Source: Nitrospirales bacterium
Lineage (GTDB): Bacteria; Nitrospirota; Nitrospiria; Nitrospirales; UBA8639
DNA: 64,000 nucleotides
Direction of reading: 5' to 3'
Assembly: GCA_963555755.3 (NCBI GenBank)
Contig: OY820905.2
Coordinates: forward strand, 4,032,001 to 4,096,000
Shown here in pieces: positions 4,407 to 64,000 of this stretch (positions are counted from its first letter, which is position 1; the number at the start of each line of letters is the position of its first letter). A program made the position numbers and the translations under genes. The notes under the pieces were generated by a model. The model saw only the letters and a list, made by a program, of their open reading frames with translations. It was not told the DNA's origin and did no database searches.

Positions 4407-4675
4407 GAACGGCGAACCCACTGTATGTCGTCAGAACAATTTGGACTTGGAGCGCAAGGAATATAAGGAATAGGATGGTGCCCTGGTTCTTTGTATTATG
4501 GACATTCAACTGACGCTTCCCAAACCGCAAAAATTTTCCGCGATCCCTCTAGCCCAAACCCCTCCAAGTAAACCTTGTGAATCGAATTCCGCAGCATATC
4601 CTCCAGTATGCGGCCCCACTTGTTCCCCGCCGAGGGGCCTTTTCATTTTCCTTAAGCCCTAGGACTTGACCTTGT

Positions 4676-4861
4676 TTACTGTCGTGACTCTCGCCAAATC
4701 AAAATAGCTAACCCGCCCGCAATGATGGCTCCGACAATACTGACCCACGGGGGGATAATGATGCCATTGACGATGACTTCCCAGCCTTGAATGATGCGCA
4801 TCAGATGAACGACGGCAACCAAGGCAAAGACGACAACTACGATAGTGCTAACGGGTTTCAT
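4676..4861 (-). CDS. Small two-TM membrane protein (61 aa)
   Basis: Two hydrophobic helices; identical 5' end repeated from 63948. Confidence 0.7.
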   Translation of the reverse strand: MKPVSTIVVVVFALVAVVHLMRIIQGWEVIVNGIIIPPWVSIVGAIIAGGLAILIWRESRQ

Positions 4862-4926
4862 TGGAAAACTTAGGTAAGTAGCTTCACGTCTTAGGCAACG
4901 GGGTCATTGGGGCAACTACCCTATTC

Positions 4927-5001
4927 TTACTCACACCAATCCTTCCCCTTCGTCCCCCCATCATAAAGAACCGCTAATTGCCGTTCAATTAGCAAGTCTG
5001 A
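4927..5001 (-). pseudogene. Thermonuclease (SNase)-like C-terminal fragment
   Basis: SDLLIERQLAVLYDGGTKGKDWCE*, homologous to 63757-63882. Confidence 0.6.
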
Positions 5002-5252
5002 ATTACAGCCAAAAACTGCTATTTTCGCTTTGCCCCGCACAGGACTCACTAATCCCGCACAGGTCCCGTATCCCCTCATCCACCTAACTCCCTAATTTCT
5101 CTCACATTCCATCCTTCACTAAATTGCCATCCTGTTTGCTCCATCAATTCATGGATCGTGCAGAAGATGCTCATTTCACGTATTTTCCAAGGCCCTATTA
5201 ATTGTCTACAATCTTGGTATGAACAACGTCTATCTATGAATGGTGATAAATC

Positions 5253-5747
5253 GTGGGTTTCAAAAAAGAAATTGCAAAGTTTTTTCAGTCAGCCCTCAAA
5301 ATGAAGAAACGGGAATACAAAACCTTTCATCAACGTCAGGCAGAACGCTTTCGACCCATGAAAGACCTTTTACCAAAAATGCTTGCTGGCATGGATGCCG
5401 AGTTTATTAAAGTGTCTGTTTCCGATGTTAAAGCTAGTGTCAAAATTGGAACGCGTGCAACCAATTCAGGTGATTTTGAAACGCATATGCAATGGGATAT
5501 TTCCCCAAATTATGAGATTCGATCGGAGGCTCAACCAGAAGGACGGGTTTTTTTCGAAGTGGACCTTCCAGGATATAGAATTGAGGAAATAAACCGTCTT
5601 AGAGGATTGGAAGATGAAGAATCTGAAGACCATATTATTTTTGAGAATGGACGCGAAGCCTTAGGATATTTAGTCGATAAAACCTTAGGAAAAATTGCGC
5701 TGTATCGACAACTGGAGGCAACTCCACAACCTTCAGGAAAACTATAA
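5253..5747 (+). CDS. Hypothetical protein
   Basis: 164-aa AT-rich ORF, no recognised motif. Confidence 0.55.
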   Translation: MGFKKEIAKFFQSALKMKKREYKTFHQRQAERFRPMKDLLPKMLAGMDAEFIKVSVSDVKASVKIGTRATNSGDFETHMQWDISPNYEIRSEAQPEGRVFFEVDLPGYRIEEINRLRGLEDEESEDHIIFENGREALGYLVDKTLGKIALYRQLEATPQPSGKL

Positions 5748-6110
5748 CCGACAAGAAATAATAAAACCTGCCTTGAGTGCTTACCTGTTCCGATCATCGA
5801 CTTCTCCCCCCGTATATTTCTAGCCCGACCTATCCATCATGCCCCAAGGAGATCGTCTGGAAACTGGGAGCCTGTGGACCGATTATTGAATAAAACAGGC
5901 ACTATTCAATTACCCCATTGTGCTTGGACAGTTCACGATACCCCTCAAAAGAGGGGGAGGGTTGATTCCCACATCAAAGAAGGTTTCAGGATTGACTACC
6001 ATGGAGGCCGATCCTTGAGGTAAGCTTGTTTCGTTTCAGCACATGTTGGACAAATAGGAGGGATTGTTAAGGTGAGGTTTGGCTCATCGTATTTCGTGAA
6101 AGGAGCGACG

Positions 6111-48156: not shown

Positions 48157-48240
48157 TTTAACCTCACCGTGTAGGCGCTGATGAAGCAATTAATCAAAGG
48201 CCCCGTAGCAAGCTGTCGTGGTATCCGAAAAGGATGTATA

Positions 48241-48381
48241 GGGCACCTCTAAAAACCGTCCTTTTCCGTGATGGCGGCGTCAGCCGCGTGCTCAAATCCT
48301 CATGTATTCGCCCATACACTCCGGTTTTCCGCGCGCGGCTTCCTTGCCCTCACAAAAAATGCCTGGTTTTTAGAGGTGCCC
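48241..48381 (+). mobile_element. MITE family E (141 bp), copy 1
   Basis: 16-bp IR GGGCACCTCTAAAAAC; TA on both flanks. Confidence 0.9.
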
Positions 48382-48652
48382 TATATGTAAATGCCACAGC
48401 AAGCCACGGGGAATTTAACCCATTTGTGGGATTAATCTGGAATTTTTTATGGACATTAGTAATCGCCAATATTCACCCTGATTGGGTAAACCATATTGTG
48501 AGATCAAAATTTCTTTTTGAATTTAGCTCCTATTATAACATTCATTCAGCCTGCTTTGGTATCACCCCTTCCGTTGCACTAGCGAGTTGAATCTAAGCAT
48601 TATTTTTATCTGAAGGTTATTCATGTGAAGGCCTGTAAAAGGTATTGTATTG

Positions 48653-55581: not shown

Positions 55582-55638
55582 TAATGTGGTGGTGGAACAG
55601 TTGTGGCGTAATGTTAAGAACTTAGTCAGCTCACACAA

Positions 55639-55779
55639 GGGCACCTCTAAACACCGTCCTTTTCCGTGATGGCGGCGTCAGCCGCGTGCTCACATCCTCA
55701 TGTATTCGCCCATACACTCCGGTTTTCCGCGCGCGGCTTCCTTGCCCTCACAAAAAATGCCTGGTTTTTAGAGGTGCCC
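55639..55779 (+). mobile_element. MITE family E, copy 2
   Basis: Near-identical to 48241-48381. Confidence 0.9.
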
Positions 55780-55785
55780 ACAATA

Positions 55786-59902: not shown

Positions 59903-60247
59903 TTCATTGAGCAGACGCGCAGCGGAAGCCTCGACGTGGAGGGAAAGGAGAAGCACATGCCCTTCTTGGGCCAACCGAAAAGTACTGAAGAGGCAACACG
60001 TTGTCAATTACAAATTGGGGAGGTTTCGGCGGCAGGGCTTTTGTGGTGTGAGCACTTCTCAATATTTAGGGTATAGGTGCAGACAAACGAAAGGCCCACG
60101 CGGTTACCAGCCGTTGAGCCTTCCCAAAAAGGGGAGCTGACACAATCTTTCACTAGGTTTAGTGTCTCACGAATCAGGCGGTTCGTCTATTCCTTAAACG
60201 AGGGGTCAACGTGTGATCTACACACACTTCATCATCTGAGTAATGTA

Positions 60248-60388
60248 GGGCACCTCTAAAAACCGTCCTTTTCCGTGATGGCGGCGTCAGCCGCGTGCTC
60301 ACATCCTCATGTATTCGCCCATACACTCCGGTTTTCCGCGCGCGGCTTCCTTGCCCTCACAAAAAATGCCTGGTTTTTAGAGGTGCCC
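60248..60388 (+). mobile_element. MITE family E, copy 3
   Basis: Near-identical to the other two copies. Confidence 0.9.
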
Positions 60389-60528
60389 TGTAGTCTACCC
60401 GCTTTCAATAACTCACCTGTCACCCCACCTGAATCACCGTCAGTCAATTTAACAGTATGGAGAAGTGGCTCGAGCCACCATGGATAAGCGCGATATTAAA
60501 TAATCGATACACGCGTCACACAAACAGC

Positions 60529-60740: not shown

Positions 60741-60759
60741 TGGTGCCGAAGGCGGGATT
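60741..60759 (-). tRNA. tRNA-Leu-like 3'-terminal fragment (att site)
   Basis: AATCCCGCCTTCGGCACCA on the minus strand; rest of the tRNA absent; abuts the arm region. Confidence 0.7.
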
Positions 60760-61060: not shown

Positions 61061-61348
61061 ATTTTGTTTTGTGTGGTAAAGCACAGACAAATTAACGCTG
61101 CCAGAATTATTCCAGGAAGTGAGTTCGTACGATGGCGTCTTATTTCACAACGGGCGGCTGGGGCTATACGTTGCTTGGCGTATGGTGCGGAAAGCGTTTC
61201 CTAGTCATAATATCTACCAACTAATTGCAATCTCTAACAACGGCACTCCACGTCCATAAGATTGATGATAAAAAGCGGACCAGATCACCGAAGATTTTGA
61301 CCCATATTGGAGCCTAGCGCCTAACTACGGTTGGAGGAGGAAGGAAAG

Positions 61349-62983
61349 ATGGTACATTCTTCTTGTATGGGAAAGCGAGCTTCGCGCTGGTCGATCGCAC
61401 TGCTGACGGCGGCGCTTCTCGTCGTAGGCGTTGCGGAGGTCCGGGCCCAGTTCGAGGCTCGGTCGGTCGACGGAAGCGGGAACAATATGGCCAACCCGCA
61501 GTGGGGAATGGCGGGGACGCAACTGCTCCGGCTCGCGCCGGAGGCTTATGGCAACGGCATAGATACGCCGGCGGGTGGGACGAGGATCAGCCCCCGCGAG
61601 GTCAGCAACATGCTCTCGGCGCAGATGAGCGACATACCGAACAGCGTCGGGGCGAGCGACTGGATCTGGCAATGGGGCCAGTTCTTGGATCACGACATCG
61701 ACCTCACGCCCGACAACAGCGCCGAGCCGCTGCCAATCTCCGTGCCGGCGGGGGATCCCTTCTTCGATCCCGGAGAAACCGGCACGCAGGAAATTGGGTT
61801 CAACCGCTCGATCACCGATCCAAGTACGGGGACGGGGACCAGCAATCCCCGCCAGCAGCTCAACCTGATCACCTCGTTCATTGACGCCTCGAACGTCTAT
61901 GGTTTGGACGCCCTGCGAGCGGCGACCCTGAGGACCAACGACGGGACGGGGCGGCTCGCCTCGACAAAGGGCGGGCTGGCGCTGCCGTTCAACACCGACG
62001 GGCTAGCCAACGCCGGCGGTCCGGACCCGAGCCTCTATCTGGCCGGCGACGTGCGCGCCAACGAGCAGATCGCCCTGACAGCCACGCATACGCTCTTCAT
62101 GCGTGAGCACAACCGCCTGGCCGCGGAGCTCGCCGACAATGACCCGAGCCTGACCGGCGAGGAGATCTATCAGCAGGCACGCAAGATCGTGGGCGCCCTG
62201 ATTCAAGTAATCACCTACAACGAGTTCCTACCGATCCTCTTAGGCCCGGGGGCACTCCCGGATTACGCCGGCTATGACGATTCGATCGAGGCGGGGATCT
62301 CGAACGAGTTCTCGACCGGGGCCTATCGATACGGGCACAGTATGCTCTCGGAGACGCTGCTGCGCGCCAACAAGTCGCTCAACCAGAAGGCCGATACTTC
62401 GCTCAGGGACGCCTTCTTCAACCCGAAACTCCTCTTCAAGGGCGGGGGGATCGAGGCGCTGCTGCTCGGGCTTACAACCCAGCAAGCCCAGGAGGTGGAT
62501 ACCCTTATGGTCGACGGCGTGCGCAACTTCCTCTTCGGCCTGGCGGGCTCGGGCGGCTTCGATCTGGCGTCGCTGAACCTCCAGCGCGGGCGCGATCATG
62601 GCCTCTCGGACTACACGGCCGTCCGGTTTGCCCTCAGGCTCCGCAAGGTGAAGGACTTCGATGACATCACTTCGAACCCAGAGCTCCAGGCGAGGCTCGC
62701 GGCGACCTACAGCGACGTGGACGATATTGACCTCTGGATGGGCGGCCTGGCCGAGGACCACGTGGCCGGCGCGCTCGTCGGCGAGACGTTCCACGCCATC
62801 ATGGTGGACCAGTTCACGCGCCTGCGCGATGGCGACCGTTTCTGGTATCAGAATGATTCGTTCTTCACGAACAACCCCGGCCTAATGAACGAGGTAGAAG
62901 CCACGACGCTGGGCGACATCATTCGTCGCAATACGAACCTCGAAGACGAGATGCTCGATGACGCCTTCACCTTGAACAACTAA
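61349..62983 (+). CDS. Secreted animal-type heme peroxidase (peroxidase-cyclooxygenase family)
   Basis: RSVDGSGNN, WGQFLDHDID, GDVRANEQ, REHNR, YRYGHS, QRGRDHG, RDGDRFWY. Confidence 0.95.
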   Translation: MVHSSCMGKRASRWSIALLTAALLVVGVAEVRAQFEARSVDGSGNNMANPQWGMAGTQLLRLAPEAYGNGIDTPAGGTRISPREVSNMLSAQMSDIPNSVGASDWIWQWGQFLDHDIDLTPDNSAEPLPISVPAGDPFFDPGETGTQEIGFNRSITDPSTGTGTSNPRQQLNLITSFIDASNVYGLDALRAATLRTNDGTGRLASTKGGLALPFNTDGLANAGGPDPSLYLAGDVRANEQIALTATHTLFMREHNRLAAELADNDPSLTGEEIYQQARKIVGALIQVITYNEFLPILLGPGALPDYAGYDDSIEAGISNEFSTGAYRYGHSMLSETLLRANKSLNQKADTSLRDAFFNPKLLFKGGGIEALLLGLTTQQAQEVDTLMVDGVRNFLFGLAGSGGFDLASLNLQRGRDHGLSDYTAVRFALRLRKVKDFDDITSNPELQARLAATYSDVDDIDLWMGGLAEDHVAGALVGETFHAIMVDQFTRLRDGDRFWYQNDSFFTNNPGLMNEVEATTLGDIIRRNTNLEDEMLDDAFTLNN

Positions 62984-63214
62984 TCAGCCTTCGACGTTGC
63001 CTCGGGGCCCAAGGCTGTTTCGTTTCAGCACATGTTGGAAAAATAAGGGGGGGATTGTTTCCTACTCGTTTAGCAAAGCTGGAAGCGCAAGCCAGCGTCG
63101 TCCCCGTCAGCCTGCATTGAGCAGCAACGTTCGCCGTCACAAAGAGCCTCATCGTGTCGGCGGTGGGGCTTTTTCTTTTGCAATCACACCTAAATACAGT
63201 ATCCTTCCTCCATC

Positions 63215-63418
63215 ATGGCTTCCCCCCTCGACCCCCAAACCCTCGTTACCCTCGAAGAGCTCAGCATTGACGATAATCCCAAAGAAGTCAGAGGGAAATA
63301 TTTCAGGATTGTGGGGAGGCTTATAGTTGATGGGCAGGACCTTTCCGATATGCTTATTCAAAAGCAATTAGCCGTCCCTTATCATGGGGGAACGAAGACC
63401 AAGGATTGGTGTGGGTGA
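63215..63418 (+). pseudogene. Chimera: MASPLDP gene start fused to a thermonuclease C-terminal tail
   Basis: MASPLDPQTLVTLEEL plus RGKYFRIVG...LAVPYHGGTKTKDWCG. Confidence 0.65.
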
Positions 63419-63431
63419 AAAGGAGGAACCA

Positions 63432-63731
63432 ATGAAGACGCTAGACAGGATTATTCTAATTGTTTTGGTTATTGGAATTTGGGGATTAATAGGGACGATG
63501 TGGGTAAAGCCAAGCAATGTGGATGCACACGATGGACATACCCATGAAAGCATTGATGTGTTCGGCGTAGCAGAAGAATACCACTCGCATGATTATGCGG
63601 AGGAAGGCCACTCGCATGATTATGCAGAGAGAGACCACTCGCATAATGTCTTTGCTATTTACAATTTCAAGAGCGCTATAGTACGCATCCTATTAGATTG
63701 CTCTGTCGATGGGGATTCTATTTCGTGCTAA
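63432..63731 (+). CDS. Small membrane-anchored His-rich repeat protein
   Basis: N-terminal TM helix; HSHDYAE repeats with a 27-bp period; AGGAGG SD. Confidence 0.75.
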   Translation: MKTLDRIILIVLVIGIWGLIGTMWVKPSNVDAHDGHTHESIDVFGVAEEYHSHDYAEEGHSHDYAERDHSHNVFAIYNFKSAIVRILLDCSVDGDSISC

Positions 63732-63756
63732 ATACAAGGAGGAACCCTATTTTGGG

Positions 63757-63882
63757 GGAAAATATTTCAGGATTGTAGGGAGACTGATCGCCGATGGCGT
63801 GGATATTTCAGACTTGCTGATACAACAACACTTAGCGGTTCTCTATGATGGGGGGACGAAGACCAAGGATTGGTGTGAGTAA
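63757..63882 (+). pseudogene. Thermonuclease-like C-terminal fragment, second copy
   Basis: GKYFRIVGRLIADGVDISDLLIQQHLAVLYDGGTKTKDWCE*; no start codon. Confidence 0.65.
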
Positions 63883-63947
63883 GAATAGGGTAGTTGCCCC
63901 AATGACCCCGTTGCCTAAGATGTGAAGCTACTTACCTAAGTTTTCCA

Positions 63948-64000
63948 ATGAAACCCGTTAGCACTATCGTAGTTGTCGTCTTTGCCTTGGTTGCCGTCGT
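63948..64000 (+). CDS. Small membrane protein, partial; duplicate of 4676-4861
   Basis: MKPVSTIVVVVFALVAV, identical at DNA level. Confidence 0.75.
   Translation, partial: MKPVSTIVVVVFALVAV

Follow-up and report, generated by a model that had tools for sequence, protein, structure and literature searches.

Remnants of a thermonuclease gene as probable short-homology joints for the exchange of small genes in a Nitrospirales bacterium

Near the right-hand end of a 64,000-nt stretch of a Nitrospirales genome, two tails of a thermonuclease gene each stand directly ahead of a different small gene. An earlier reading of these letters (the sequence-only reading) proposed that the 3' end of the nuclease gene serves as an anchor at which downstream genes are added or swapped, and the locus thus raises the question of whether such tails take part in gene exchange or are debris. 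The whole stretch, referred to here as the window, corresponds to C1:4032001-4096000 of genome G000, a 4.6-Mb genome in two contigs. The host is a marine bacterium of nitrite-oxidiser type; its 16S gene agrees exactly with the Nitrospira probe Ntspa662 and differs at two positions from the Nitrospina probe Ntspn693, and we place it in the Nitrospirales. Comparison with related loci leads us to consider it likely that the tails are short-homology joints, between which general recombination adds and swaps small genes.

The array of the window reads tail, His-rich gene, tail, small membrane gene, as the sequence-only reading had it; we reproduced the coordinates and found the assembly spanned by short-read contigs. 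One of these, from run X1 (possibly the source sample), covers window positions 63200-63894 with 0 differences, and another, from a second study (X4), covers 63292-63894, also with 0 differences; the named holders of this stretch are sediment metagenomes. A 5' piece of a small island gene, here called MASPL (63215-63269, plus strand), is fused in frame to the first tail (tail A, 63260-63418, plus), which comprises the last third of the island thermonuclease gene with its stop codon. After a gap of 13 nt follows a His-rich cargo gene of 99 aa (63432-63731, plus), and 25 nt further on the second tail (tail B, 63757-63882, plus), 126 nt that run from GKYFR to the stop. The last gene of the array encodes a two-helix membrane protein of 61 aa (63948-64133, plus, the end being a window-equivalent position), none of whose 49 homologous clusters is named. 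A continuation of the array past position 64000 had been envisaged; it ends after this gene, at window-equivalent 64133.

The array lies in a unit of ~4.1-4.2 kb, bounded on the left by a 17-nt copy of the tRNA-Leu(CAG) 3' end (60741-60757, minus strand) and on the right by a 55-nt copy of the tRNA-Leu 3' end (window-equivalent 64824-64878). Within this unit the upstream neighbour of the array is an animal haem peroxidase gene (61331-62983, plus; PF03098, E=2.9e-159; 63% GC), and between the two sits a hairpin with a T-run (63143-63178, plus), a linker common to many island remnants and normally found behind PEP-CTERM gene ends. The peroxidase gene and a cytochrome P450 gene (58541-60007) are both island cargo. 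The full tRNA-Leu (G000:C1:4108445-4108530) and two identical tyrosine integrases are ~12 kb away. An exact 2025-nt duplicate (G000:C1:4098342-4100366 and 4106391-4108415) holds a PEP-CTERM gene end, a 161-aa gene and most of a tyrosine integrase beside tRNA-Leu. A 143-nt palindromic repeat, present in well over 100 genome copies, occurs in the window at 48239-48385, 55637-55783 and 60246-60392. Six of nine tail sites are within 25 kb of a tRNA, which is not significant (p=0.053), and an Rfam search of three island stretches returned tRNAs only.

The second tail and its gene had also been reported as duplicated in the left island of the window. That duplicate is a real inverted copy and is longer than first seen (4440-5005, minus strand), comprising a trailer, the 61-aa gene (4676-4861) and a tail (4927-5005), but of the tail it retains just the final 79 nt. 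It matches 63804-64369 at 546 of 566 positions, with 11 of the 20 differences in the tail part. As a 566-nt inverted repeat with copies ~59 kb apart, the pair could invert the intervening segment. The allele of the 61-aa gene differs among runs X1, X4 and X5, and X4 lacks the paralogous locus at C1:2480008.

By alignment, both repeats are the 3' ends of a predicted thermonuclease (SNase-family) gene from an island family. The tails by themselves gave no match to any SNase model; a full-length relative, P0001, the product of a whole gene in the same-genus genome G005 (locus L002), exceeds the PF00565 cut-off (23.9 against 21 bits) and matches the PHROG 452 endonuclease (E=2.4e-14), which makes it a predicted nuclease, and tail A aligns with its last third. 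An alignment of tails A and B over 129 nt gives 78% identity, with 17 synonymous and 9 non-synonymous differences. We rejected a tandem duplication of tail A into tail B, since the two share 78% identity while each has nearer alleles elsewhere (identities to L048 are 83% and 90%). A phage origin of the nuclease was likewise rejected: the viral collection holds no close relative, the best being 44% identical over most of its length. The one tail-pattern match in that collection lies in the same contig as this relative, and there is one terminase-like neighbour, in L041.

Genome G000 holds ten 3' ends of the nuclease gene, without a whole copy of this subfamily; a distant nuclease paralog is located at C1:3719804. 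Nine of the ten were found by blastn, with starts at gene nt 300 (twice), 306, 332, 350-370, 381, ~390-410, 409 and 421, and the tenth, of ~20 nt, by motif. Besides these 3' ends, G000 carries four 5' pieces of the gene, one clear and the rest weak, and two internal pieces. Remnants are 13-154 nt long, and even the 13-nt remnant retains the 3' end of the gene. The word AAGGATTGGTGT occurs six times against 1.0 expected, far above chance, and a pattern for the tail matches eight times in G000, with 0 matches for its reversed control. Among 115 family genomes the tail pattern occurs in four, from three genera (G000, 8; G008, 3; G005, 1; G018, 1), a count that may fall short where repeats were lost from fragmented assemblies. 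We further drew on 54 metagenome loci, of which the 30 closest were analysed and 24 distant ones (33-49% identity) excluded; most are short contigs of 1-6.6 kb. In these loci the whole nuclease gene is mostly found behind a Sel1-repeat gene, and nearby are small Arc-like and HTH regulators (sequence-based labels with weak Pfam support) and an integrase-like start. No whole island element was recovered from the loci analysed. In the copy at C1:2967772-2967892 of G000, an internal deletion joins gene nt 152 to ~400; behind it is a SnoaL-like gene, a second copy of which is present at C1:2231568.

The remnants do not share a 5' breakpoint near RGKYFR, as had been suggested, and instead start at staggered gene positions (300 to 421 and later). 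The only recurrent 5' joints are the MASPL fusion point (four loci) and the junction of the His cassette itself (three loci). That the tails diverge in DNA while keeping their frame was borne out in so far as the frame is retained, but this does not point to selection acting on them: pN/pS is 0.13-0.32 for nine remnants against whole alleles and 0.21 among whole alleles, and we therefore dropped the idea of selection after truncation. The tails are in frame because they were cut from working alleles. The 5' ends of the nuclease gene show a separate peculiarity. In 22 of 22 (L002:1180, L040:1898, L044:1123 and 19 more), a start-Gly-stop (ATG/TTG, GGR, TAR) lies one base out of the nuclease frame, directly behind the upstream stop. 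In 12 of the 22, the stretch upstream as far as the first stop lacks a standard start in frame, and in six codons 1-20 lack one too; the mature part of the nuclease nevertheless has a pN/pS of 0.11. These ends would be explained by a -1 frameshift at codon 2 or by a non-canonical start, DNA-level homogenisation being the dull alternative.

The word AAGGAGGAACC does directly flank the His-rich gene, at 63420-63430 (plus), immediately 5' of the gene start, and at 63736-63746 (plus). As a recombination repeat it fared less well, with seven genome copies against 3.8 expected, two of them preceding the starts of RRM genes. It is a Shine-Dalgarno-like (ribosome-site-like) word, and the second copy is likely the ribosome site of the donor's next gene. 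Two copies within 316 nt are notable, but the second belongs to the fixed right junction of the cassette, identical in the window, L044 and L073. A target duplication is unnecessary as an explanation of the word. The His-rich protein has a hydrophobic N-terminal segment, three 9-aa His repeats and two conserved cysteines. It has no Pfam or PHROG family match, and the ESM Atlas returned unnamed clusters under 0.9 only. In its family of 43 homologous clusters, the number of His repeats varies between the conserved hydrophobic N-terminus and the Cys pair. Our guess would be a metal-binding surface or periplasmic peptide. By eye, the homologs in G056, G004 and G008 have no tail ahead of the gene.

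If tails act as anchors for exchange, as proposed, the genes behind them should differ, and this was found: 42 ends (10 in G000, 28 in the metagenome loci and G005, and 4 in G008 and G018) are followed by 20 clusters of downstream genes. The largest are cargo W, a small unknown gene (8 ends), and Sel1 genes (7). The clusters are unrelated and include Sel1, PilZ, SnoaL-like and Gfo/Idh/MocA genes as well as unknowns, and the nuclease alleles upstream of them are 79-93% identical in protein. A mis-joining of repeats in the genome or metagenome contigs might generate such variety; the contigs are short and repeat-rich, and the tails are high-depth branch points in the sediment runs. We nevertheless regard an assembly artefact as very improbable: contigs from two studies span the array of the window with 0 differences, any mis-join that passes through a cargo gene would still require that cargo in two contexts, and within G000 alone ten ends lead to eight downstream clusters.

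The same cargo is also found behind unrelated tail alleles and before different neighbours, in line with the proposed swapping of cassettes at the nuclease 3' end. The His gene, its spacer and the start of tail B are ~99% identical in the window, L044 and L073, and the 5' breakpoint of tail B is fixed in all three. Upstream, the gene is preceded in these loci by the MASPL fusion, by a whole nuclease gene or by a partial tail behind another gene, and exact identity extends into the tail for only 12, 12 and 21 nt before falling to 60-84%, no longer than the baseline for 309 pairs of ends with different cargo (median 12 nt). Downstream, the window and L073 are identical for 42 nt of tail B and then diverge into the 61-aa gene and cargo W; the right side of L044 holds Ns, so that this junction is weak and counts little. 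Cargo W itself is preceded in L042 by a whole nuclease gene, in L063 by a MASPL-tail fusion and in L073 by the His cassette. L073 thus has the order tail, His gene, tail, cargo W, whereas in L042 and L063 a nuclease end directly precedes cargo W, which gives filled and empty states of the His cassette. Finally, a 718-nt block of tail and cargo is 99.6% identical between G005, where it is behind a whole nuclease gene, and C1:2480008, where it is behind a MASPL fusion. From the comparison of these loci, cargo swapping at tails is well supported; a small gene shared between different tails in related DNA makes it likely that the tails act as joints.

Sediment data give a similar picture of the His gene as a unit. 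In runs X9, X10 and X11, from three studies, it forms one contig of 423-444 nt that ends inside the tails on both sides, at a depth of 16-28 against 2-6 for pieces of the peroxidase gene, depth here not being copy number; three of four runs covered the gene, X8 being the one without coverage. Contigs, which drop rare variants, showed neither an excised circle nor, for this strain, an empty tail A-B allele in any of eight runs. A 464-nt skip from tail A to tail B (X1, X2, X5) was considered as an excision and set aside, the contig having 17 differences and being read as the C1:2480008 paralog.

The tails might alternatively be scars only, left by one-off displacement or deletion, with later gene conversion overwriting the tail beside a stationary cargo gene. 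The staggered 5' ends of the remnants would fit, as would the whole nuclease alleles, which are mosaics with internal shared tracts indicative of allele conversion, and the fragmentation of other backbone pieces (MASPL, Arc-like ends, PEP-CTERM end with terminator). However, the genes beyond the tails vary too, with three upstream settings and at least two downstream genes for the His cassette and three upstream settings for cargo W, and conversion inside a tail cannot change the neighbours; the comparison of L073 with the window in particular weakens this reading, which we consider unlikely.

Where the exchanges end bears on a second alternative, in which a specific enzyme (an island tyrosine integrase, IntI or a nicking protein) would cut or recombine the terminal 12-40 nt of the nuclease gene, making them a dedicated site or hot spot. 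Eight of 11 near-identical tracts that continue into shared cargo have their start in the final 38 nt of the 453-nt gene (nt 416-442); the other three are one recent haplotype that retains at least 153 nt of tail, so that crossovers are not always terminal. Under uniform crossover in the last 120 nt, a boundary in the last 38 nt has p=0.25 each, giving 0.004 for four and 0.0003 for six events, values that overstate the case, as the ~6 crossover events counted are not fully independent and repeated crossovers could erode the tracts. This clustering may leave room for a hot spot; every remnant, down to 13 nt, keeps the 3' end, and the genome is rich in tyrosine integrases and has a true IntI. 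On the other hand, the sequence past the stop codon is not conserved, the remnant lengths are staggered, and the right-hand crossover of the His cassette is found 42 nt inside tail B, well away from the motif. Remnants of 13-154 nt with boundaries at gene nt 301-442 and 374 do not describe a fixed-length site with a fixed crossover, and the same terminal block is the best-conserved part of the gene, which by itself would attract crossovers. We judge a dedicated site to be highly unlikely. Its bolder form, in which this coding 3' end, at its last 12-40 bases, would also be the docking site of a recombinase or nicking enzyme and so equip sediment Nitrospirales with an attC-free cassette system that takes up even chromosomal genes and carries them across several genera, strikes us as a similarly long shot.

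Integrons and CALINs stack and swap single small genes in one orientation. The array resembles them in this outcome and differs in having no attC, attI or IntI and in its imprecise joints. The sequence-only reading had described an integron-like outcome without attC sites, and this description holds: the downstream genes vary, cargo is shared, and the 13- and 25-nt gaps around the His gene are too short for attC. A script for attC sites found none in the ~4.1-4.2-kb unit, but it is insensitive, catching 1 of ~5 sites seen by eye in the real integron of the genome. TIGR02249 has one match over its cut-off, at C1:318997, which on a circular C1 would be ~0.83 Mb from the array, measured across the chromosome end, and which has attC-like sites of its own, which further argues against IntI acting at the array; the integrases near the array score 28.5 bits of 265. 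For pdif, there was no match with two or fewer mismatches to one XerD-arm motif, which may not be the dif of this lineage. In the integron (G000:C1:318997-336000) the 5' end of IntI is cut by an IS and the attC-like sites are downstream of its 3' end; it also contains two 3' remnants of IntI, each with the same trailer and a different gene behind it. Elsewhere, the same 75-nt spacer follows three short tails (L106:7516-7645, equivalent to C1:1487515-1487644; L110:8408-8499; and L031:558-652, in G008). At its end is a GTTRGGC-like word, and past this word the three sequences part, much as they would at the attI or attC end of an integron; the spacer may be a link between tails and integron cassettes.

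How tails might come to lie ahead of new genes is suggested by the two joints for which both parents are known; most other joints are without a known parent. At the MASPL-tail A joint, a 10-nt word (63260-63269) is present in both parent genes, and the same fusion recurs in the window, C1:2480008, L063 and L072. At the other, in L053, a block 99.3% identical to window 4944-5799, which holds a 164-aa gene (5253-5747, plus) with a trailing tail, runs straight into a Gfo/Idh/MocA gene 98.8% identical to C1:27407-26347 in G000, with a 7-nt match and a nearby 4-nt match at the joint. We read L053, on the evidence of this one contig, as a tail that captured a gene from elsewhere in the chromosome. 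An arrangement of staggered 3' remnants ahead of displaced cargo is seen in the window, L063, L073, L049 and L002. Other scattered island pieces are MASPL (6), Arc-like ends (3) and the PEP-CTERM end with terminator (26 matches), and IntI likewise has two 3' remnants. The tail is thus one of several island-derived linkers, not a dedicated system, the PEP-CTERM end with terminator being commoner.

For the preferred reading, tails as short-homology joints, we propose three steps. A new gene would be captured once, with incoming DNA pairing on one side, while its other side is attached within a nuclease gene by a few matching bases; the cargo and a partial tail would then lie ahead of the old cargo. 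Identity tracts then suggest that cargo bracketed by tails passes between islands and between strains through a crossover in each tail. These crossovers would fall at the cargo-proximal edge, the probable reason being that exchange halts at the first mismatches of alleles that are ~80% alike. The mosaic build of the whole nuclease alleles, with its internal shared tracts, fits such exchange as well. The architecture and the short flanks transferred with the cargo are observed; for the route and the enzymes, we infer entry of DNA by natural transformation or on the islands themselves and exchange by RecA-type recombination. The dprA, comEC and mutS families are present in G000 but also in 10-11 of 14 control genomes, so that their presence does not show competence, and RecT, ERF and Rad52-like families were not found in G000.

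An array of this kind documents, base by base, the gain and rearrangement of accessory genes in the absence of an integron, by capture at a few matching bases followed by exchange across flanks as short as 12-42 nt between alleles ~80% alike. If this is true, gene fragments usually dismissed as junk would be working joints, and short-patch recombination of diverged copies would be far more productive in these sediment bacteria than the rarity of illegitimate joins in the laboratory suggests. The array could also serve as a defined substrate for the minimum homology needed in natural gene exchange.

We found no published account of a nuclease-tail system in the literature searched, which misses most subscription journals; several described systems share parts of it. 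In the T6SS immunity arrays of Vibrio cholerae, sequential displacement was proposed to occur by homology-facilitated illegitimate recombination, and the authors call the array reminiscent of integrons, without an integrase (Kirchberger et al. 2017, PMC5361080). There, as here, a module lands behind a homology anchor and the old gene is pushed back, and its 3' end may remain. Two features of that process, staggered 3' remnants ahead of displaced cargo and microhomology at two joints, are present in our data. There, however, the cargo sits at one locus and is the immunity gene cognate to the toxin upstream of it, whereas here it consists of 20 unrelated clusters of small genes. The remnants here are spread over nine or more places and, unlike those described there, are put to use again as joints on either side. 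Insertion with long target duplication, described for restriction-modification genes between near-identical repeats in mostly naturally competent species (Furuta et al. 2010, PMC2853133), similarly places a gene between long variable direct repeats without a mobile-element gene. The array has direct repeats over 30 nt (the 126-nt overlap of tails A and B) and an empty allele (L073 filled, L042 and L063 empty); its repeats, however, are alleles of a coding 3' end that share 78% identity and recur at many loci, and its insert is a His-rich gene without a family match instead of a restriction-modification system. The PeSL cassettes of T4-type phages also have ~100-nt repeats that flank and shuffle unknown small genes, with filled and empty states (Arbiol et al. 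2010, PMC2839356). A PeSL, however, combines a promoter with a terminator, and its mini-circles have been demonstrated experimentally; the tails are coding remnants, on which we counted 4 promoter-like sites against 2.0 +/- 1.5 by chance and no terminator on the coding strand. Tycheposons (Hackl et al., bioRxiv 10.1101/2020.12.28.424599) recall the surroundings of the array, with integrases at tRNA genes, partial tRNA copies and stacked decayed elements, a likeness that explains the island frame and not the gene-by-gene swapping inside it. Set beside these systems, exchange at nuclease tails is a real and well supported instance, on the loci compared, of a known type of process, in a case previously undescribed among the literature searched.
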